A stretch of 64,000 nt of DNA from contig CAYQJB010000001.1 of NCBI GenBank assembly GCA_964417855.1, positions 230,709 to 294,708 on the forward strand, read 5' to 3'. Below, one piece after another: positions 4,194-57,428 of the stretch. This DNA is from an uncultured Candidatus Saccharibacteria bacterium. GTDB lineage: Bacteria; Patescibacteriota; Minisyncoccia; Phycocordibacterales; CAIZLB01. Positions within the stretch are counted from its first letter, which is position 1. Each line of letters starts with the position of its first letter. The position numbers and the translations under genes are program-made. The notes below the pieces were generated by a model, which was not told the origin of the DNA, made no database searches, and worked only from the letters and a program-made list of their open reading frames with translations.

Positions 4194-4217
4194 ATTACAT
4201 TTAACTCAATAACTTTA

Positions 4218-4955
4218 ATGCTTTATTTAATTCACGGTACAAATACAAACAAAGTCCGAGCTAAACAAAAAGAGCTTATTGGTATTATGCAGAGTAAGCA
4301 ACCAAATGTTTCATTGTATAAAGTAACAACTGAGAATTGGAGTGAAATCATGATGGATGAGTTAATGTCCAGTCAGGGTCTGTTTCTTGCAAAATATATA
4401 GTTACTTTGGATAAGATATTGGAAGATAAAGAGATTGGTCCAACTGTTGTTAAGGTTTTGAAAGAATTAAAAGAAAGTGATCACGCTTGGATAATTATTG
4501 AAGAAAAAATACTTTCTGTAAATCTAAAAAAAATAGAGAAGTTGGCGCAAAAGGTTTACGATTTTAATGAGACTACCGAAGGGGTAGGTGGGGGAACTTT
4601 GGCTAAAAAACAAAAACCTACAGCATTTAACTTTGCAGAACAGTTTGCTGCAAAGAATAAGGTTGGAGCGTGGAAAGAATTTTTACAATTAAAAGAAGCT
4701 GAGCTTGCAGGGGAGGAAATTCATGGAGTCTTGTGGTGGCAAATGAAGTCTGTGTATTTGGCTAAGTTTTGTAAAACAGCGGAGGAGACTGGGTTAGCCC
4801 CATACTCTTATACTAAAGCATTAAGATTATCCAAAGGGTGGGAATTAAAAGAGTTAAATAATTTAATGGATAGTTTAGTTGGGATGTATCATGAGGCACA
4901 CAGAGGAAATGGGGACTTATTGGTAGGTTTGGAGAAAGCATCGCTAACACTGTAG
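4218..4955 (+). CDS. Putative DNA polymerase III delta subunit-like protein
   Basis: N-terminal MLYLIHGTN...LFLAKYIV pattern resembles HolA clamp-loader delta; the match is weak. Confidence 0.35.
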   Translation: MLYLIHGTNTNKVRAKQKELIGIMQSKQPNVSLYKVTTENWSEIMMDELMSSQGLFLAKYIVTLDKILEDKEIGPTVVKVLKELKESDHAWIIIEEKILSVNLKKIEKLAQKVYDFNETTEGVGGGTLAKKQKPTAFNFAEQFAAKNKVGAWKEFLQLKEAELAGEEIHGVLWWQMKSVYLAKFCKTAEETGLAPYSYTKALRLSKGWELKELNNLMDSLVGMYHEAHRGNGDLLVGLEKASLTL

Positions 4956-24994: not shown

Positions 24995-26126
24995 ATTGAT
25001 TGCCTGTTGATGAACTACTTGAGTCAGTTGAACTTGCTGTTGTCTGTGTACTGGAGGAGTTGAGATAATTGTAATTCAAAAAGTCCTGAAGAGCGATCTT
25101 TTCTGTAAACACATCATTTGCATTATCAACACCAATATATCTAAAGTGCCAAGGCTCATATATGTATCCAGTTTCTGCTTGCTTTTTGTCTGGATAACTC
25201 ATTATAAAACCGTATTTATAACTATTTTGAGCCATCCATTTTCCTTCTTTACTTTTTGAAAAAGCAACTGACACGCCAGCATAGCCAATACTTTTACCGG
25301 TGACATCTACAGCTGTACCAAGTTGATGCTCAGAATGCCCAGCTTCAGCAATTCCAGCCTTTGCTGCGTTTCCATCCTTTCCAACCCACATTGAGTATAA
25401 AAACTTTTGCATTTCTGCACTTCTGTAAGATGATGTTATTGCGATATCCAACTTTTGTTTTTTTGCATCTGAAATCATTTCATTTAAATGTCTCACTATT
25501 CTTTCAGAAACACACATAACACCAATTGTTTTTATTTTATCAGAAACCCTTACAATATCCTGGGGTATATAATCAAAAGGAACTGATGTTGATCTATTTA
25601 AGTTCTCAAAAACCTTATTAAAATCACTCTCAACCATATTGTCTCTTCCAATAACTCTGATTGCGGTTGGGCACAAGACTTTGTACATTAGACCGTTTAG
25701 ACCAACTCTTGTTGTAAGGTCCAGAATTCCGGTGACTGGAATATTTAGCTTTGATTGAATCGCTTTCACTCCAGCCTCTGTCTTGGGTCCAAAGTGAGAA
25801 TTAATAACAGATCCAGATGTGTCATTTAATAACGACTTTAAAATAATTTGAAGTACTTTAACATCATTGCTGTTAGAACCGTATTTAAGTGTTCTAGTAA
25901 ACTCACCGCTTTCCTGCCAAACTTTTACTGCATTTATTGAAACTATGGTTGACGTACTATTATTTAAGTTGCCTGTGTTGTTTGAGCTGCTAGCATTGAG
26001 TATATCGATTAGTGGAGAGTAGGGAATTGTTGTTGTTGCTTGGGCTTTAGAATCCATAAGAATAAAACACAATATGAGTGTTATTATTATAATAAACCTT
26101 GGGTTCGATAATTGGGTTGAGGTCAT
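24987..26126 (-). CDS. Secreted M15-family D-Ala-D-Ala carboxypeptidase (VanY-like) with a peptidoglycan-binding domain
   Basis: Signal peptide, a PG-binding repeat (VKVLQIILKS...GPKTEAGVKAIQ) and the zinc-binding motif SGHSEHQLGTAVDV. Confidence 0.7.
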   Translation of the reverse strand: MTSTQLSNPRFIIIITLILCFILMDSKAQATTTIPYSPLIDILNASSSNNTGNLNNSTSTIVSINAVKVWQESGEFTRTLKYGSNSNDVKVLQIILKSLLNDTSGSVINSHFGPKTEAGVKAIQSKLNIPVTGILDLTTRVGLNGLMYKVLCPTAIRVIGRDNMVESDFNKVFENLNRSTSVPFDYIPQDIVRVSDKIKTIGVMCVSERIVRHLNEMISDAKKQKLDIAITSSYRSAEMQKFLYSMWVGKDGNAAKAGIAEAGHSEHQLGTAVDVTGKSIGYAGVSVAFSKSKEGKWMAQNSYKYGFIMSYPDKKQAETGYIYEPWHFRYIGVDNANDVFTEKIALQDFLNYNYLNSSSTQTTASSTDSSSSSTGNQFN

Positions 26127-53761: not shown

Positions 53762-54325
53762 CTATTTAACGCGCTCTACGTATTCTCCTGTTTCAGTGTT
53801 GATTCTAACCGTATCTCCTTCAACAACGAACATTGGTACGTTTAGTCCAGCCCCTGTCTCAAGAACCACTAGCTTGTTTCCACTTTTTGATGAATCTCCA
53901 CGAAGTACAGGAGGAGCTTCCTTAACTAGTAGCTCAACCTTTATAGGTAGCTTTACATTAAAGATGTGTTCATTAAAGATTGAGGCTTCAACAATTGAGT
54001 TTGGCTTTAAGAATTTTCCACTGTTTCCAAGGACACTTTCATCAATCTTAAAACGAGCTGCTGGATTGTTCTCTTCACAAAACCACCATTCTCCTTTATT
54101 TGCATATAGAAACTTGATTTTTTTTGTATCGATCTCAGCTGTGTGAACCTTGTCAGTAGCACCAAAAGAGTGCTCGACAATTCTTCCGTTTAATAAATTT
54201 CTTAACTTAGTATCGTTAACTGGCTTTCTCATTTGCTTTCTGAAAATATGAGAACTCATAACTTCATAAGGCTCACCCTCGAAAACGATAAACTTCCTAA
54301 CTGTAATTTCATTATAATCGTACAT
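53762..54325 (-). CDS. efp: Elongation factor P
   Basis: About 187 aa. KPVNDTKLRNLLNGRIVEHSF matches the EF-P KPGKG...KLKNLLTG region. Confidence 0.75.
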   Translation of the reverse strand: MYDYNEITVRKFIVFEGEPYEVMSSHIFRKQMRKPVNDTKLRNLLNGRIVEHSFGATDKVHTAEIDTKKIKFLYANKGEWWFCEENNPAARFKIDESVLGNSGKFLKPNSIVEASIFNEHIFNVKLPIKVELLVKEAPPVLRGDSSKSGNKLVVLETGAGLNVPMFVVEGDTVRINTETGEYVERVK

Positions 54326-54466
54326 AATATGGCCATTGTAGACTATTAAAGAGGGGATGTCTATGCCATATCTGTACGTGAATAGACCTCAGAGATATCT
54401 AAAAATATTGTATTTCTTTATAAATTCTTTATGAAAACTGAAGAGTTGTTCTGATAGTATTTAGAG

Positions 54467-54865
54467 ATGTTCAAAAAATTTATAGATTGGATGCATAGTA
54501 AGAAAAGAATTGACTCAAAAGAAAGGGCCGAAACGGTTATTAAAGAAAGAGAGGTCTACTGGTGTTCCCTAGGAGAAAATATTGGTGATGAAGAAAATGG
54601 TAAAGGCACGGTGTTTCGTAGGCCTGTACTAATATTTAAAAAATTTAACAACCGTATTTTTTGGGGAATACCAATGAGTACGAAAAACAAGGTAAACATT
54701 TACTATTTAAAAGTAAAACTAAGAGACATGGAGCAGTCAGTAATGCTTTCCCAGTTGAGGATTTTGGATACTAAAAGACTCGATACAAAAATAGGATATC
54801 TATCTGAAGGTGATTTTATAAAAATACAAAATTCTATAATGGATATTATAAAAAATAAACGTTAA
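54467..54865 (+). CDS. MazF/PemK-family endoribonuclease toxin, copy 1, with no adjacent antitoxin ORF
   Basis: EVYWCSLGENIGDEENGKG...RRPVLIF...GIPMSTK...VMLSQLRILDTKRLDTKIGYLSEGDF aligns with B. subtilis EndoA/MazF (VRPVLVI...ILLEQIRTIDKQRLTDKITHLDDEMM). Confidence 0.75.
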   Translation: MFKKFIDWMHSKKRIDSKERAETVIKEREVYWCSLGENIGDEENGKGTVFRRPVLIFKKFNNRIFWGIPMSTKNKVNIYYLKVKLRDMEQSVMLSQLRILDTKRLDTKIGYLSEGDFIKIQNSIMDIIKNKR

Positions 54866-54951
54866 GCCCGAGCTCTTTTGGAGCTCGGGCGTACGGGATA
54901 ACCCATTTGTACTTATAGTTTATCAAATAATTTTTGCTTGTCAAATTTTGC
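54866..54951. repeat. Conserved 3' element after MazF copy 1: a hairpin plus an approximately 57-nt segment repeated after copy 2
   Basis: GCCCGAGCTC-TTTTG-GAGCTCGGGC, then GGGATAACCCATTTGTACTTATAGTTTATCAAATAATTTTTGCTTGTCAAATTTTGC. On the minus strand this reads TTGACA-N16-TAAACT. Confidence 0.6.
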
Positions 54952-55061
54952 TGGTTCTACAAGCGTTATGTGGTGTATGGGCGACTGGTAAATATATTTT
55001 ATCTTCGGATTTTCTTTAACTTTTCTTTCAAGAAATAACAGTGCTGGCTTGTTAATATACT

Positions 55062-55454
55062 TTGATGTTTAAAAAATTCACAGAATGGATTCATGCAAAG
55101 ATTAATATCGATGAAAAAGAAAGAAAATCTCAAATTAAAGTAATGGAAGTATATTGGTGTGCTCTAGGTGAGAATATAGGTGATGAAGAGAACGGAAAAG
55201 GGGATGATTTTTGCCGCCCTGTCTTAGTGTTTAAGAAGTTTAATAATAATATATTTTGGGGTATACCCATGAGTACTAAAGAGAAAGAGAGCATTTATTA
55301 TATAAAGGTCAGGCTTTTGGACTCTGTGCGGTCCGTAATGATTTCTCAGGTTAGAACTTTAGATACAAAAAGGTTGCTTAAAAAGATAGGCTATATATCA
55401 AGGGCAGATTTTACAATCGTACAAGACGCAGTAATCGGAATCATAAAAAACTAA
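55062..55454 (+). CDS. MazF/PemK-family endoribonuclease toxin, copy 2
   Basis: Paralog of 54467..54865: EVYWCALGENIGDEENGKG...CRPVLVF...GIPMSTK...VMISQVRTLDTKRLLKKIGYISRADF. Confidence 0.75.
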   Translation: MMFKKFTEWIHAKINIDEKERKSQIKVMEVYWCALGENIGDEENGKGDDFCRPVLVFKKFNNNIFWGIPMSTKEKESIYYIKVRLLDSVRSVMISQVRTLDTKRLLKKIGYISRADFTIVQDAVIGIIKN

Positions 55455-55462
55455 TTTTTTAT

Positions 55463-55547
55463 CCGCGCCTTTTTACAGCGCGGACGGTCGGAATAATCCA
55501 TTTGTAACTAAAGTTTATCAAATAATTTTTGCTTGTCAAACTTTACT
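55463..55547. repeat. Conserved 3' element after MazF copy 2
   Basis: A different hairpin (CCGCGC-CTTTTTACA-GCGCGG), then CGGAATAATCCATTTGTAACTAAAGTTTATCAAATAATTTTTGCTTGTCAAACTTTAC. About 88% identical to the copy-1 element, including the minus-strand TTGACA and TAAACT. Confidence 0.6.
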
Positions 55548-55699
55548 TTGCGTAATGTTTCTAAAATTATTATTTACACAAGAAGTTCATTTGAGTAGGT
55601 GATTAATAAAAAAAGCGCCAAATTAATGACGCTTTTTATATTTAGAATACTTACATTGCACAGACTGGCTAGTCTAGGTTCGGTATCACAATGTTACTC

Positions 55700-56956
55700 C
55701 TAAAGCTCCTTCAAATGGTCTCTAATCTTCTTCAAAATTTCATTACTAATTTTTGAGTTAGATTTTAAGAACTGACGAGTAGCATCATATCCACGTCCTA
55801 GTTTTTCATCGCCATAAGCGTAACTTGTTCCACTCTTTGTAATTATTTTTAGTTTCTCACCAAGTGCAATAAGCTCACCCTCTCTTGAAATTCCTTCATT
55901 GTACATAAGATCAAATTCTGTCTGTCTAAAAGGTGCAGCAACCTTGTTCTTTACAACCTTAACACGAACACGTCCTCCCATTATTTCTTCGCCTTTTTTA
56001 ATCTGAGCAATTCTTCTAATATCTAATCTAACAGAAGTATAGAACTTCAATGCCTTTCCACCTGGTGTTGTCTCTGGATTACCAAACATAACTCCAATTT
56101 GCATTCTAATCTGATTAATAAAGATAACAATTGTTTTACTTCTTGCAACAATGGCTGTTAGTTTTCTAAGTGCCTGTGACATAAGTCTTGCTTGTTTACC
56201 CATATGAGATGCACCCATATCTCCTTCAATTTCATCTTTTGGAGTAAGAGCTGCAACAGAGTCAATAACAATAACGTCGAGCTTTCCTGATCTCACAAGA
56301 CTCTCAACAATCTCCAATGCCTGCTCTCCGGTGTCTGGTTGTGATATTAAAAGTTCATCAATTTGAACACCAAGTCTTTTTGCATACTCTGGGTCCATTG
56401 CATGTTCTGCATCAATGAAAGCACAAATACCATCTTTCTTTTGAGCTTCTGCAATAACATGAAGTGAAAGAGTAGTCTTTCCTGACGATTCTGGCCCAAA
56501 GATTTCTATGATTCTTCCTCTAGGAAGTCCTCCTACGCCAAGCGCAGCATCCAACCCAATTGATCCTGTTGAAATTGCATTAACATCAACTCTTGGTTTT
56601 TCTCCAAGGCGCATAATTGCGTCATCGCCAAACTTAGTTTTAATTTGAGCAATAGTATCTTTGATAGAAGAATTTAAATCTCTATCCTTGCTTGCTTTTT
56701 TCTTTGAACCAAAAGATGAACCTGAGCCAGATGATAGTAATGAAGAAAGGGAAGGGGAGTCAGACTTTTCTTCGTCCTTTTCCGCCTCCTCATTATTTTC
56801 ATCATCTGTTGCAACAGCTTGCTTTACATCAGCTGCTGTAGTTTTTTTCTTCACCTCCTCCTTATCAGCTTTCTTTACCTTCACTTCCTCAGGTTTTTTA
56901 CCAGCTACTTTTTTGTCATCAGCTTTCTTTTCCGGAACTATTTTTTTGTTTACCAT
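55700..56956 (-). CDS. recA: Recombinase RecA with an N-terminal Lys/Glu-rich low-complexity extension of about 90 aa
   Basis: [20 protein letters not shown] (Walker A), [18 protein letters not shown] and [20 protein letters not shown]. The conserved core begins at ...[18 protein letters not shown]. Confidence 0.9.
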
Positions 56957-57014: not shown

Positions 57015-57428
57015 TTACTTCACGTCCGTTGTTGTACCATCCTTTGTTTCAGTATCTATTTTACCATCCGTATAAACTACTTGAAGCTCCTTTGTTACAT
57101 GGGATCCAAACTTGTCTTTTGCTTCTAGTTTAATGACATTGTATCCAGGGTAGAGAAGTACTTTTTCTTTAAATTGGCCGAACTCATCTATTGGTATTAG
57201 TCTGTCATTCAACATAATTACTGAAACGTTTTTAACTATACCTTTGACGTCTACAGCGCTATTGTTGGCACTAGTTGTGCTTGGACTTTGTATTGTGATT
57301 TGAGGACCACTAATTATTTTTTTTGATTGAAAACCTGCGTAACTTCCTATAACGCAAACAGCAAGGACAATAAGAACATTTCTAATTATTGTTTTACCTT
57401 CCTTAATGTTTTTGCGCGTTCCTATCAT
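57015..57428 (-). CDS. Small membrane-anchored or secreted hypothetical protein
   Basis: One N-terminal transmembrane helix or signal segment and a Thr-rich C-terminus. No family recognised. Confidence 0.35.
   Translation of the reverse strand: MIGTRKNIKEGKTIIRNVLIVLAVCVIGSYAGFQSKKIISGPQITIQSPSTTSANNSAVDVKGIVKNVSVIMLNDRLIPIDEFGQFKEKVLLYPGYNVIKLEAKDKFGSHVTKELQVVYTDGKIDTETKDGTTTDVK

Follow-up and report, generated by a model that had tools for sequence, protein, structure and literature searches.

PemK/MazF is a textbook family of type II toxins, and many of its 'solitary' copies have hitherto been unexplained. In the canonical mazEF and pemIK systems, the toxin gene forms an operon with an upstream MazE or PemI antitoxin gene; an antisense RNA, aMEF, fine-tunes mazEF expression. 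In type I systems, the antitoxin is an RNA transcribed from its own promoter opposite the toxin gene, and the toxin is typically a hydrophobic peptide of less than about 60 aa. To our knowledge, nearly all known type I toxins are small membrane peptides and not 130-aa RNases, SymE and RalR being exceptions to the small hydrophobic type. The 3′-overlapping type I systems txpA/RatA and bsrG/SR4 of Bacillus subtilis and par RNA I/RNA II of Enterococcus pAD1 are convergent, overlap at the 3′ end or share a terminator, and have a strong antitoxin promoter; their toxins are small hydrophobic peptides, their antitoxin RNAs are 100–200 nt long, and SR4 and RNA II also touch the 5′ or ribosome-binding region. 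In the type III systems ToxIN, CptIN, and TenpIN, the toxin is an endoribonuclease of the Kid/MazF fold and the antitoxin a small structured RNA, which is encoded upstream on the same strand as tandem repeats with a terminator in between and is processed by the toxin. Two of these toxins, ToxN and CptN, are Kid/MazF-like in fold, and RNAs acting as pseudo-substrates inhibit them. The pemK RNA motif of Weinberg et al. 2017 is reportedly a candidate RNA tied to pemK genes without a protein antitoxin and proposed to be an RNA antitoxin; it is said to precede pemK on the same strand, often as multiple copies, in Firmicutes. For bacteria of the candidate phyla radiation (CPR), we know of few defence or addiction systems.

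The window—the whole stretch of 64,000 nt that was analyzed—contained two genes of this family, with putative expression signals upstream:

54467..54865, plus strand: toxin gene 1, PemK/MazF family, 132 aa (PF02452, 46.1 bits)
55065..55454, plus strand: toxin gene 2, PemK/MazF family, 129 aa (PF02452, 50.2 bits); alternative TTG start at 55062 (130 aa)
54414..54460, plus strand: putative toxin 1 promoter region, with the repeat TTCTTTA-N4-TTCTTTA at 54414-54432 and TGaTAGTAT at 54452-54460
55012..55058, plus strand: putative toxin 2 promoter region, with the repeats TTCTTTA/TTCTTTC at 55012-55029 and TGtTAATAT at 55050-55058

The initial annotation had read both open reading frames as paralogous MazF/PemK toxins, and this was borne out by the Pfam scores (the gathering cut-off of PemK_toxin, PF02452, is 23.1 bits), by the 66% protein identity of toxin 1 to toxin 2 (E 8e-63), and by a structural model. 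The AlphaFold model of the toxin (pLDDT 83) had the MazF fold with an SH3-like barrel as in MazF and Kid; its best Foldseek matches in the PDB were all MazF proteins (S. aureus, M. tuberculosis, B. subtilis), with TM values of 0.6–0.74 and E of about 4e-6. A profile search with the toxin also matched PDB sequences including S. aureus MazF and B. subtilis EndoA. Toxin 1 was 100% identical to the database entry P0001. The arginine of the RRP motif (R52) was invariant among 26 homologues and aligned with R25 of EndoA (the equivalent of MazF R29), which we take to be the catalytic arginine. The toxin family, the fold, and the catalytic arginine are shared with canonical type II mazEF/pemIK. In contrast to canonical MazF, the window toxins carry an extra N-terminal helix and a larger β1-β2 loop: in the PemK subfamily, the MazF core is extended by a K/R-rich helix (residues 2–17) and by a disordered GDEENGKG loop. 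Both proteins are presumably toxic. The 'solitary PemK' subfamily comprised 1546 clusters at 50% identity. The neighbours of the modules were housekeeping genes (efp, recA, prfB, and a tRNA gene).

No MazE-like gene was found beside either toxin, where the flanks hold only non-conserved micro-ORFs, and in the 64-kb window, ten small ORFs were searched for AbrB/MazE/RHH-type domains and had none. Neither the upstream MazE/PemI gene nor the operon of the canonical type II systems is present at the window loci. No recurrent neighbour ORF family was found in 74 homologous loci, save the tandem toxin paralogues and spurious frames crossing the RNA, and no conserved protein partner was found on three Campylobacterota plasmids; PADLOC and NCBIfam searches gave no match. 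The absence of an adjacent MazE-like ORF, claimed at the outset for the two toxin genes, was thus confirmed in the flanks, with no conserved neighbour family across the 74 loci. It is improbable that a protein encoded in trans, or one from an unrecognised family, is the true antitoxin, with the RNA fine-tuning toxin expression or terminating or insulating transcription. A solitary mazF with a non-MazE protein antitoxin does exist as a precedent (MrpC/MazF-mx; PMC4803016), the search for a partner at the source locus spanned 64 kb of the genome, and a type II pair, virA/virT, has been reported on the Campylobacter jejuni plasmid pVir, where VirT may be the PemK gene. Such a protein is argued against by the lack of a conserved partner in the 74 loci of many lineages and on the three Campylobacterota plasmids, by the absence of pVir0046 homologues from every locus, and by the fact that the RNA is the one partner that stays with the toxin, both at its three paralogous insertion sites in the source genome and across phyla.

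The RNA in question is predicted from a conserved element downstream of each toxin gene, in which the following features were located:

54850..54910, minus strand: predicted small RNA 1, start at about 54910 (the A of ACAAAU), predicted 3′ end; covariance model 78.3 bits
54894-54905, minus strand: hairpin H2 of small RNA 1
54866-54890, minus strand: terminator hairpin H1 of small RNA 1
54917..54944, minus strand: small RNA 1 promoter, with -35 TTGACA at 54939-54944, a 16-nt spacer, and a TG-extended -10 TAAACT at 54917-54922
55445..55505, minus strand: predicted small RNA 2, start at about 55505; covariance model 65.7 bits
55489-55500, minus strand: hairpin H2 of small RNA 2
55461-55485, minus strand: terminator hairpin H1 of small RNA 2
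55512..55539, minus strand: small RNA 2 promoter, with -35 TTGACA at 55534-55539, a 16-nt spacer, and -10 TAAACT at 55512-55517
55610..55637, both strands: bidirectional terminator-like hairpin from a terminator scan, between the small RNA 2 promoter and recA

Judged by these signals, the 3′ element is a predicted minus-strand gene for a discrete RNA of about 55–60 nt with its own promoter and terminator, probably transcribed in the source organism. The order within the RNA is a 5′-ACAAAU leader, a tetraloop hairpin of 3–5 bp (H2), a short linker, a GC-rich terminator (H1), and a U-tail. The initial annotation had noted after each toxin a hairpin whose sequence changes while its pairing is kept; indeed, H1 differs in sequence between copies 1 and 2 and is paired in both, and a second, small hairpin (GGGAUAACCC in one copy, GGAAUAAUCC in the other) shows compensatory change. 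Small RNA 1 folds with -27.4 kcal/mol (z -5.9) and small RNA 2 with -18.8 kcal/mol (z -2.8). The terminator hairpin begins 1 nt past the toxin stop codon in copy 1 and 7 nt in copy 2; the U-rich tail of small RNA 1 overlaps the stop codon of toxin 1 (54863-54865), and the tail of small RNA 2 extends to that of toxin 2 (55452-55454).

The opposite-strand TTGACA-N16-TAAACT read initially downstream of each toxin proved, with its TG-extended -10 (TGaTAAACT), to be the two top promoter matches within 3.5 kb, that of small RNA 1 having 10 of 12 matching positions plus the TG. The 29-nt block containing it (54917-54945 and 55512-55540) was 100% identical between the copies (29/29), as compared with about 69% for coding DNA; allowing up to 3 mismatches, it occurred twice in the window, with 0 occurrences expected by chance. 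The further claim that this promoter points back into the toxin gene stood in its direction, since it fires towards the gene, but not in its reach: the predicted RNA terminates at the stop codon. No Rfam match was found at E up to 10 in 54200-55800, and a search of the whole window and 20 related loci against Rfam 15 at the gathering score gave no relevant match; the Rfam pemK RNA motif was matched neither there nor in the plasmid loci. A tandem repeat array was absent from the RNA region, the RNA being a single unit, and an array of the type III kind was rejected on this lack of repeats.

Among 74 intact homologues, which reach down to about 40% protein identity, at least 63 had the same RNA anatomy on their 3′ side. 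On the minus strand downstream of the toxin, a promoter TTGAC(A/T)-16/17-TAnnnT was present in 58 of the 74 loci, as compared with 7/74 and 4/74 in two control regions. The TTTG-extended -10, which was not a selection criterion, occurred in 76–84% of loci, and H2 started 10–13 nt past the -10 in 50 of 52. The toxin-plus-RNA module is common to many candidate-phyla-radiation bacteria and forms one large family, not peculiar to the source genome; in the same genome, a third toxin paralogue located elsewhere has the same 3′ element. By its predicted features, a widespread PemK subfamily is linked to a defined small RNA gene absent from Rfam.

Covariation of the 3′ element, put forward at the outset as a check, was found at two scales: in the close clade, both partners vary in 10 of 14 pairs and none of the 500 shuffles attains the observed score, and for H2 family-wide, both partners vary in 4 of 4 pairs, with a score of 0.618 against 0.159 in shuffles. 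The close clade was aligned by a covariance model and the family-wide H2 by loop anchoring; both alignments are fitted to the structure, which biases the percentages of paired cells towards it, while the outcome of the shuffle and slide controls stands. When 59 RNAs were simply aligned with MAFFT, RNAalifold gave no structure, the variable terminator being misaligned there. Between loci with 80–95% identical proteins, RNA identity was 0.98, coding DNA identity 0.81, and spacer identity 0.50. The ACAAAU leader and the H2 loop were near-invariant in the close clade; across clades, the 5′ motif varied (ACAAAU, AUAAAC, or CUAUAC), and C. jejuni has a 35-nt extension.

It is highly improbable that the element acts on the plus strand as part of the toxin mRNA (a 3′-UTR signal or terminator), or that the likeness of the copies reflects gene conversion only. 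The plus strand of copy 1 folds well too (z -5.4). Nevertheless, the minus-strand reading contained 56 G·U pairs in 640, against 8 in 580 on the plus strand; it had the more stable fold in 32 cases and the plus strand in 15 (p = 3.5e-5), and its tail held 4.75 U per 10 nt against 2.04 (p = 1e-8). UUCG, GAAA, and GCAA loops were seen only in the minus-strand reading. On the plus strand, 19 of 28 outer H2 pairs become C·A mismatches, no U-tract follows H1, and the UUCG/GNRA loops are lost. On these strand tests, a plus-strand 3′-UTR element or toxin terminator was rejected, and the 3′-UTR alternative offered by the initial annotation is disfavoured: G·U pairs, loops, and U-tails all indicate the minus strand. 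As to gene conversion, the promoter spacers of the three paralogues in the source genome are 94–100% identical, which looks like conversion or extra local constraint. Across loci, spacers are otherwise about 50% identical, near random, and the -35 and -10 hexamers persist on either side of a diverging spacer, which is a promoter signature; pure gene conversion was rejected on this divergence.

The geometry of the minus-strand RNA gene was regular. Covariance-model matches occurred only directly 3′ of toxin genes and on the opposite strand. A DNA-pattern scan of metagenomes gave 23 matches in 22 loci, and all 10 genuine matches were convergent to a PemK gene. Twelve loci of the scan, considered as orphan RNAs, were rejected as false positives (high-GC TetR-like leaderless promoters), and so was L104, an isolated match lacking a PemK homologue in its vicinity. 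The distance between the toxin stop and the base of the terminator had a median of 5 nt and was 1–12 nt in 37 of the 52 loci. The toxin ORF runs into the RNA hairpins in 8 of these 52, which makes the overlap of RNA and toxin certain there; in the window, overlap of the small RNA with the toxin mRNA is likely because no plus-strand terminator precedes the RNA gene. For read-through from toxin gene 2, the hairpin at 55610..55637 is the first plausible plus-strand stop.

Several loci departed from the one-to-one arrangement. A contig syntenic with the window (L087) had three RNA copies and one toxin gene, and at two loci the toxin frame was interrupted and the RNA intact; this asymmetry is antitoxin-like. 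No RNA was visible at two or three toxins that look intact (L046, L055). L016 and L076 carry an additional bidirectional terminator, placed after the toxin stop and ahead of the conserved core of the RNA, so that overlap there would be limited to the terminator. The convergent, abutting layout was also found on plasmids of Nitratiruptor, Helicobacter, and Campylobacter, and the RNA of the Nitratiruptor plasmid has the full anatomy of the window type (AUAAAU, H2, H1). No Rfam match was found at E up to 1 in four plasmid loci, and the small RNA gene was unannotated in the PGAP gene tables of the homologous plasmid loci examined.

The plasmid locus of C. jejuni 81-176 provides transcript data. 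The sRNA CJpv3 of pVir is 77 nt long (31119->31043, minus strand), was detected by dRNA-seq and Northern blotting, and was marked as putatively antisense to pVir0047 (Dugar et al. 2013, PMC3656092). The step height of its start site, 16164, is the highest on pVir, and that of the pVir0047 toxin start site at 30608 is 28 (PMC3656092, Tables S5 and S12); the CJpv3 start signal is thus about 580-fold above that of the toxin. The pVir0047 gene (30634-31038) encodes a protein 40% identical to toxin 1 over 104 aa, N-terminal helix included (E 1e-23). CJpv3 is convergent to it, with a 3′ end at 31043, 5 nt from the end of the toxin gene at 31038. Like the window RNAs, CJpv3 has two 3′ hairpins beside the toxin stop and a very strong promoter. 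It differs from them in its length of 77 nt, in its 35-nt 5′ extension, and in the lack of an ACAAAU leader; its promoter is of the Campylobacter type, TGnTATAAT without a -35, whereas the window RNAs have a TTGACA -35, and its module is plasmid-borne, whereas those of the window are chromosomal. The close-clade covariance model R1 gave no match at the pVir locus (L106), so homology of the RNAs is argued from position and architecture. The RNA starts proposed initially near 54910 and 55505 have strong comparative support, with which the transcript mapping at this homologous locus agrees.

The passages of PMC10470494 and PMC7826846 that cite Shen et al. 2016 describe cjrA/cjpT on pVir as an antisense RNA antitoxin, CjrA, with a 'proteic' toxin, and as contributing to pVir stability. 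We lean towards equating CjrA with CJpv3 and CjpT with pVir0047; the alternative mapping would be CJpv2 with the 41-aa hydrophobic ORF pVir0034. The window modules and cjrA/cjpT may be one family. If cjpT is pVir0047, then cjrA/cjpT is the experimentally characterised founder of the module family.

The small RNA is probably the antitoxin or regulator of its toxin. Each unit would thus be a two-gene toxin-antitoxin-like module, in which a weakly promoted and probably leaderless toxin gene encodes an endoribonuclease of the PemK/MazF family and a near-consensus sigma-70 promoter 80–85 nt past the stop codon, directed at the toxin gene, is predicted to make the RNA. By an antisense route, the toxin transcript would read through the RNA gene because no plus-strand terminator precedes it. 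The abundant RNA would then pair with the 3′ end of the toxin mRNA, stop codon included, and the duplex would be cut (e.g., by RNase III) or the toxin mRNA otherwise destabilised or truncated. As long as the RNA is transcribed, little toxin would be made; once its synthesis stops, toxin would be produced. The RNA is antisense to the toxin 3′ flank and not to the coding or ribosome-binding region. No complementarity was found between the RNA and the 5′ or start region of the toxin, cognate, non-cognate, and shuffled pairs scoring alike, so that an antisense effect is only possible through the 3′ end.

With an RNA from its own promoter opposite the toxin gene, the predicted module would fit type I in this feature. 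It resembles txpA/RatA, bsrG/SR4, and par in its convergent layout, likely 3′ overlap, and strong antitoxin promoter, and differs from them in the class of toxin and the length of the RNA: the window toxins have a soluble RNase fold of 129–132 aa. Unlike SR4 and RNA II, the window RNAs show no sign of touching the 5′ or ribosome-binding region. This antisense route, type I-like with a 3′ overlap, is a tentative reading that we slightly favour over direct binding of the toxin. In the cis-antisense control proposed by the initial annotation, the minus-strand RNA is strongly supported (promoter, G·U pairs, loops, U-tails), while the type I-like mode of action is plausible only.

A type III-like mode, in which the small RNA binds PemK directly and blocks it with no RNA-RNA pairing required, is a serious rival, though rather unlikely, and it draws on several of the same observations. 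Single-stranded ACAAAU could act as a pseudo-substrate in the RNA-binding groove, and the tetraloop hairpin could be held by the basic N-terminal helix and the enlarged β1-β2 loop of the toxin, both specific to the subfamily. Constraint sits in the 5′ domain of the RNA (leader, shape and loop of H2), while the terminator stem covaries freely; at 80–95% protein identity, the conservation of the RNA over coding DNA given above points the same way, and this constraint on primary sequence appears to exceed the needs of a cis-antisense RNA, which counts against the antisense route. So do the UUCG/GNRA tetraloops, which are poor kissing-loop elements and would suit a stable structural scaffold. Direct binding would also accord with the lack of complementarity to the toxin 5′ region, the extra RNA copies retained near the sole toxin gene of L087, the RNA core kept in L016 and L076 despite the terminator separating it from the toxin transcript, and the roughly 580-fold RNA excess over the toxin start signal in C. 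jejuni. However, the window RNA lacks a repeat array and processing sites and does not precede the toxin on the same strand, being single, convergent, and downstream in contrast to the antitoxins of ToxIN, CptIN, and TenpIN; the 5′ motif is not constant between clades; and a protein-binding RNA would not need a convergent, stop-abutting geometry kept across phyla, a geometry which favours a cis mechanism. That the RNA is a single-unit, convergent, protein-binding antitoxin, with leader and tetraloop in the toxin groove and the N-terminal helix replacing the MazE interface, is accordingly doubtful. If it were true, the system would be type III-like with a new architecture and genuine PemK/MazF toxins, and the 1546-cluster subfamily, CPR bacteria included, would be RNA-neutralised. 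Rescue of an ORF-only toxin by the RNA would separate protein-binding from antisense neutralisation of a MazF-fold enzyme.

Both the antisense and the protein-binding readings take the unit for a toxin-antitoxin module. It is quite unlikely that the PemK-like protein is instead an RNase that has been domesticated for some cellular role, with the small RNA as substrate, guide, or product. The housekeeping neighbours named above, the lack of a PADLOC match, and the viral contigs, in which neither a toxin homologue nor the RNA pattern was found, would be in keeping with domestication. By contrast, variable copy number, paralogues in differing contexts, disrupted toxins, and orphan RNAs are typical of selfish toxin-antitoxin modules; plasmid homologues exist, and the catalytic arginine is kept.

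The annotations 'type II toxin without antitoxin' in CPR genomes may represent complete RNA-antitoxin modules. The coordinates and the covariance model allow a search for the partners of over a thousand toxin clusters, and uncultured Patescibacteria are connected to an experimentally tractable Campylobacter plasmid locus.

Regarding the expression of the toxin genes themselves, the ATG at 55065 is the likelier start of toxin 2 than the TTG at 55062, because the resulting 129 aa match the entry P0060 and the TGnTAATAT box (here TGtTAATAT) stops 6 nt ahead of this ATG. The TGaTAGTAT of toxin 1 also stops 6 nt ahead of its ATG, and the toxin 1 mRNA may be leaderless or near-leaderless. This putative promoter pattern was kept upstream of close homologues, and the TTCTTTA-type repeat was over-represented in the window.

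The host genome is Patescibacteria-like with a G+C content of 36%, and its toxin region is bordered by efp on one side and recA on the other:

53762–54325, minus strand: efp
54467–54865, plus strand: toxin 1 ORF, Pfam PemK_toxin, 46.1 bits
55065–55454, plus strand: toxin 2 ORF, Pfam PemK_toxin, 50.2 bits
55610–55637: bidirectional terminator, the first plausible plus-strand stop for toxin 2
55700–56956, minus strand: recA

Both toxin ORFs exceeded the Pfam PemK_toxin cut-off of 23.1 bits and shared 66% protein identity. The toxin structure predicted from 26 homologues (pLDDT 83) was a MazF barrel, with MazF or EndoA as the best PDB matches without exception; the initial annotation of the ORFs as paralogous MazF/PemK-type toxins was thus correct. 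A basic N-terminal helix (residues 2–17) is an addition in this toxin subfamily, and a longer, disordered GDEENGKG loop precedes the invariant RRP arginine, which aligned with catalytic R25 of EndoA. The genome encodes a third paralogue at another site, flanked by a tRNA gene and prfB and followed by the same 3' element. A direct repeat, TTTCTTTA-N4-TTCTTTAt(g/a)gaaact, was found upstream of both toxin genes (54414–54439 and 55012–55036) and, on the minus strand (57442–57469), upstream of an unrelated gene with a Glucodextran_B domain (57015–57428). Its core matched ten times in the window versus 2.3 expected, and the repeat may function as an operator or promoter common to these genes. RecA (418 aa) carried a low-complexity, Lys/Glu/Ser-rich N-terminal extension of about 85 residues before the conserved core.

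We failed to find a MazE-like ORF beside the toxins, in agreement with the initial annotation. No AbrB, MazE or RHH domain was identified among the ten small ORFs of the window, and no ORF family recurred beside the toxin when the neighbours of homologous loci were compared. Since the defining protein antitoxin was looked for and absent, the module is unlike a type II mazEF operon.

Each toxin stop codon was followed by a GC-rich hairpin, a small hairpin and a 29-nt block, in this order. The GC-rich hairpin differed in sequence between the two copies, the small hairpin (GGGATAACCC versus GGAATAATCC) contained a compensatory change, and the 29-nt block was identical in both, with no further occurrence in the window. 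Unlike but paired hairpins before a conserved block, and an opposite-strand promoter within it, had already been proposed, and both held: on the minus strand the block reads TTGACA-16-TGaTAAACT. Judged from its sequence, the conserved 3' element is a minus-strand small-RNA gene. Both window RNAs were predicted to fold into two hairpins (z = −5.9 and −2.8).

For comparison, 80 genomic loci with toxin homologues of 36–80% identity were taken, nearly all from Patescibacteria metagenome-assembled genomes. With few exceptions, intact toxin genes were followed by the same minus-strand series:

Promoter, minus strand: TTGAC(A/T), spacer of 16–17 nt, (TG)nTAnnnT
Gap after the −10, minus strand: 5–7 variable nucleotides
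Leader, minus strand: short and A/U-rich, ACAAAU in the close clade (the nearest homologous loci), AUAAAC or CUAUAC farther away
H2, minus strand: 3–5 bp hairpin with a tetraloop
Linker between H2 and H1, minus strand: 2–5 nt
H1, minus strand: GC-rich hairpin, then a U-rich tail

By automatic criteria the RNA gene was present at at least 63 of the 74 intact toxins, and by eye at all except two or three; the element is thus also found downstream of the relatives' toxin genes. Rare exceptions to the linkage are loci L046 and L055, where the toxin genes look intact and no small-RNA gene was recognisable downstream. An Rfam DUF3800-II RNA (RF02961, 47.6 bits) was located in L021, from a Patescibacteria-like genome, at 4204–4269 (minus strand), about 1.3 kb from the toxin locus.

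A promoter of such quality was present on the minus strand of 58/74 downstream segments, compared with 7/74 on the plus strand of the same segments and 4/74 on the minus strand within ORFs. The extended −10 TG, which was no part of the selection, occurred in about 80% of loci, and H2 started 10–13 nt past the −10 in 50 of 52. Between genomes the promoter spacer was about 50% identical, i.e., near random, while the RNA was conserved at least as well as coding DNA (0.98 vs. 0.81 for locus pairs with proteins 80–95% identical). This points to a promoter with a functional transcript and away from gene conversion as the cause of the conserved element. Within this genome, the 16-nt spacers of the three paralogues (54923–54938; 55518–55533; about 3457–3472 in L001, the third paralogue) were 100% or 94% identical, compared with only 66–69% for the paralogues' coding DNA and about 50% for spacers of other genomes; this identity could stem from local gene conversion or from an additional binding site particular to this genome.

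Both strands were folded for 48 distinct elements. G·U pairs were more frequent on the minus strand (56/640 vs. 8/580), which also had the greater fold stability in 32 cases versus 15 for the plus strand (p = 3.5e-5) and more U in the 10 nt past H1 (4.75 vs. 2.04, p = 1e-8). Frequent UUCG, GAAA and GCAA loops in H2 and H1 appeared only on the minus-strand reading. A covariance model built from the close clade had exactly two matches in the window (78.3 and 65.7 bits); in other loci every match lay immediately 3' of a toxin gene and on the strand opposite to it. The covariation across relatives that the initial annotation had called for was found: 10 of 14 pairs varied on both sides in the close-clade alignment (0/500 shuffles reached the observed score), and all four H2 pairs covaried family-wide (0.618 vs. 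0.159 in shuffles). In 19 sequences the outer H2 pair was U·G, the plus-strand equivalent of which is C·A; in 9 it was U-A.

Metagenomes were scanned with a DNA pattern for the small RNA, and all ten genuine matches (10/10) were convergent to a PemK gene. L104, an isolated match with no PemK homologue nearby, was rejected, as were twelve high-GC metagenome contigs (L086, L088–L090, L092–L095, L097, L099, L101 and L102) sharing an unrelated TetR-type promoter, TTGACA...ATTTGTAAATATACGTTcATTTACAAATGGGCCGCCCC. The latter is palindromic and operator-like, its predicted transcript start lies at the ATG or a few bases before, and the gene behind it resembles a putative TetR-type regulator unconnected with the toxin–RNA module. 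Metagenome contig L087, syntenic with the window and with recA downstream, carried one toxin gene followed by three minus-strand RNA genes (319–375, 454–510 and 566–621; 74.6, 61.5 and 59.6 bits). A toxin gene is missing from the last two of these, and the −35 of the third, TTGCTA, is weakened. In L028 and L030 the toxin frames were interrupted and the RNAs intact (73.9 and 78.1 bits); match lengths were not multiples of three (L028 2501–2891; L030 2501–2895 and 3478–3533; ORFs of 83 and 80 aa), reflecting either pseudogenised toxins or assembly errors. The RNA outlasts the toxin, and a toxin without the RNA was almost never found, a pattern expected of an antitoxin. Whichever the route, the small RNA is quite likely the toxin's antitoxin or regulator.

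With 1546 clusters at 50% identity (E up to 1e-10), the toxin subfamily is large, and its members extend to plasmids of Campylobacter, Helicobacter and Nitratiruptor. The Nitratiruptor copy had the complete window-type anatomy (TGcTGTATAAT, AUAAAU, H2, and H1 abutting the stop codon); Helicobacter copies had three hairpins. The sole PemK gene of pVir from C. jejuni 81-176, CJJ81176_pVir0047 (30634–31038), encodes a protein 40% identical to toxin 1. Dugar et al. 2013 (PMC3656092) saw the 77-nt sRNA CJpv3 (minus strand, 31119→31043) on a Northern blot and marked it as putatively antisense to pVir0047; the step height at its start site is 16164, the plasmid maximum, versus 28 at 30608, where the toxin transcript starts. 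The 3' end of CJpv3 lies 5 nt from the pVir0047 stop codon, a geometry matching that of the candidate phyla radiation (CPR) loci; by toxin similarity and by RNA position and architecture, the window module probably belongs to the same toxin-plus-RNA family. As summarised in papers of the Zhang and Plummer laboratories (PMC10470494, PMC7826846), Shen et al. 2016 described a pVir type I system in which the antisense RNA CjrA is the antitoxin to a proteic toxin. With modest confidence, we prefer to equate cjrA/cjpT with CJpv3/pVir0047. The alternative pairs CJpv2, which starts at 25268 on the plus strand, with pVir0034, a hydrophobic ORF of 41 aa (25484–25609, minus strand) towards which it heads; these look like a classical type I pair. 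According to the published pVir start-site table, at least five pVir genes (pVir0013, 0035, 0044, 0046 and 0048) have near-identical copies of one promoter cassette, AAGTATAGATTAAGTATAAAAAAGGTATAAT, upstream.

A ToxIN-like type III locus was ruled out by the lack of repeats, the wrong position and the wrong strand, and no Rfam family matched the RNA of the window, of 20 related loci or of four plasmid loci. Closest in layout are 3'-overlapping type I systems (RatA/txpA, SR4/bsrG, par), from which the window module differs in that its toxin is an enzyme. A convergent RNA beside this PemK family has already been seen in pVir, and possibly characterised as cjrA/cjpT. New, as far as the literature showed, are the RNA as a conserved, definable family, its association with the whole PemK subfamily and the commonness of the module in CPR genomes.

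Regarding the mode of action, we tentatively commit to a type I-like reading, in which the RNA would act antisense on the 3' end of the toxin transcript. It is based on the convergent, stop-codon-abutting layout maintained across phyla and on how the Campylobacter RNA has been classified in the literature. The stretch from ACAAAU through H1 is 37–54 nt long, and the H1 base is separated from the toxin stop codon by a median distance of 5 nt (1–12 nt in 37/52 loci), so that the U-tail is complementary to the stop codon and the final Lys/Asn/Ile codons before it. In eight loci the toxin ORF extends into the RNA hairpins, making overlap certain there. Ahead of the RNA gene there is no terminator on the plus strand, and H1 lacks a U-tract on that strand; toxin transcripts therefore probably run through the RNA gene. 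In two loci (L016, about 2893–2940; L076, about 520–570) an additional bidirectional intrinsic terminator between the toxin stop and the conserved RNA core gives a three-hairpin RNA.

Type III-like direct binding of the RNA to the toxin is a serious competing reading that also fits the data, and we consider it only somewhat less probable. It would fit the constraint on the 5' domain (leader, H2 shape and loop) beside a freely covarying terminator stem, RNA evolution slower than that of coding DNA, loops that are stable structural tetraloops and not kissing loops, the lack of complementarity to the toxin start region, and the persistence of orphan RNAs. The L016/L076 terminator, which parts the toxin transcript from the RNA core, and the basic helix gained where canonical MazF depends on MazE point the same way. 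Direct binding, if shown, would make the module of greater interest, and it could operate together with antisense action.
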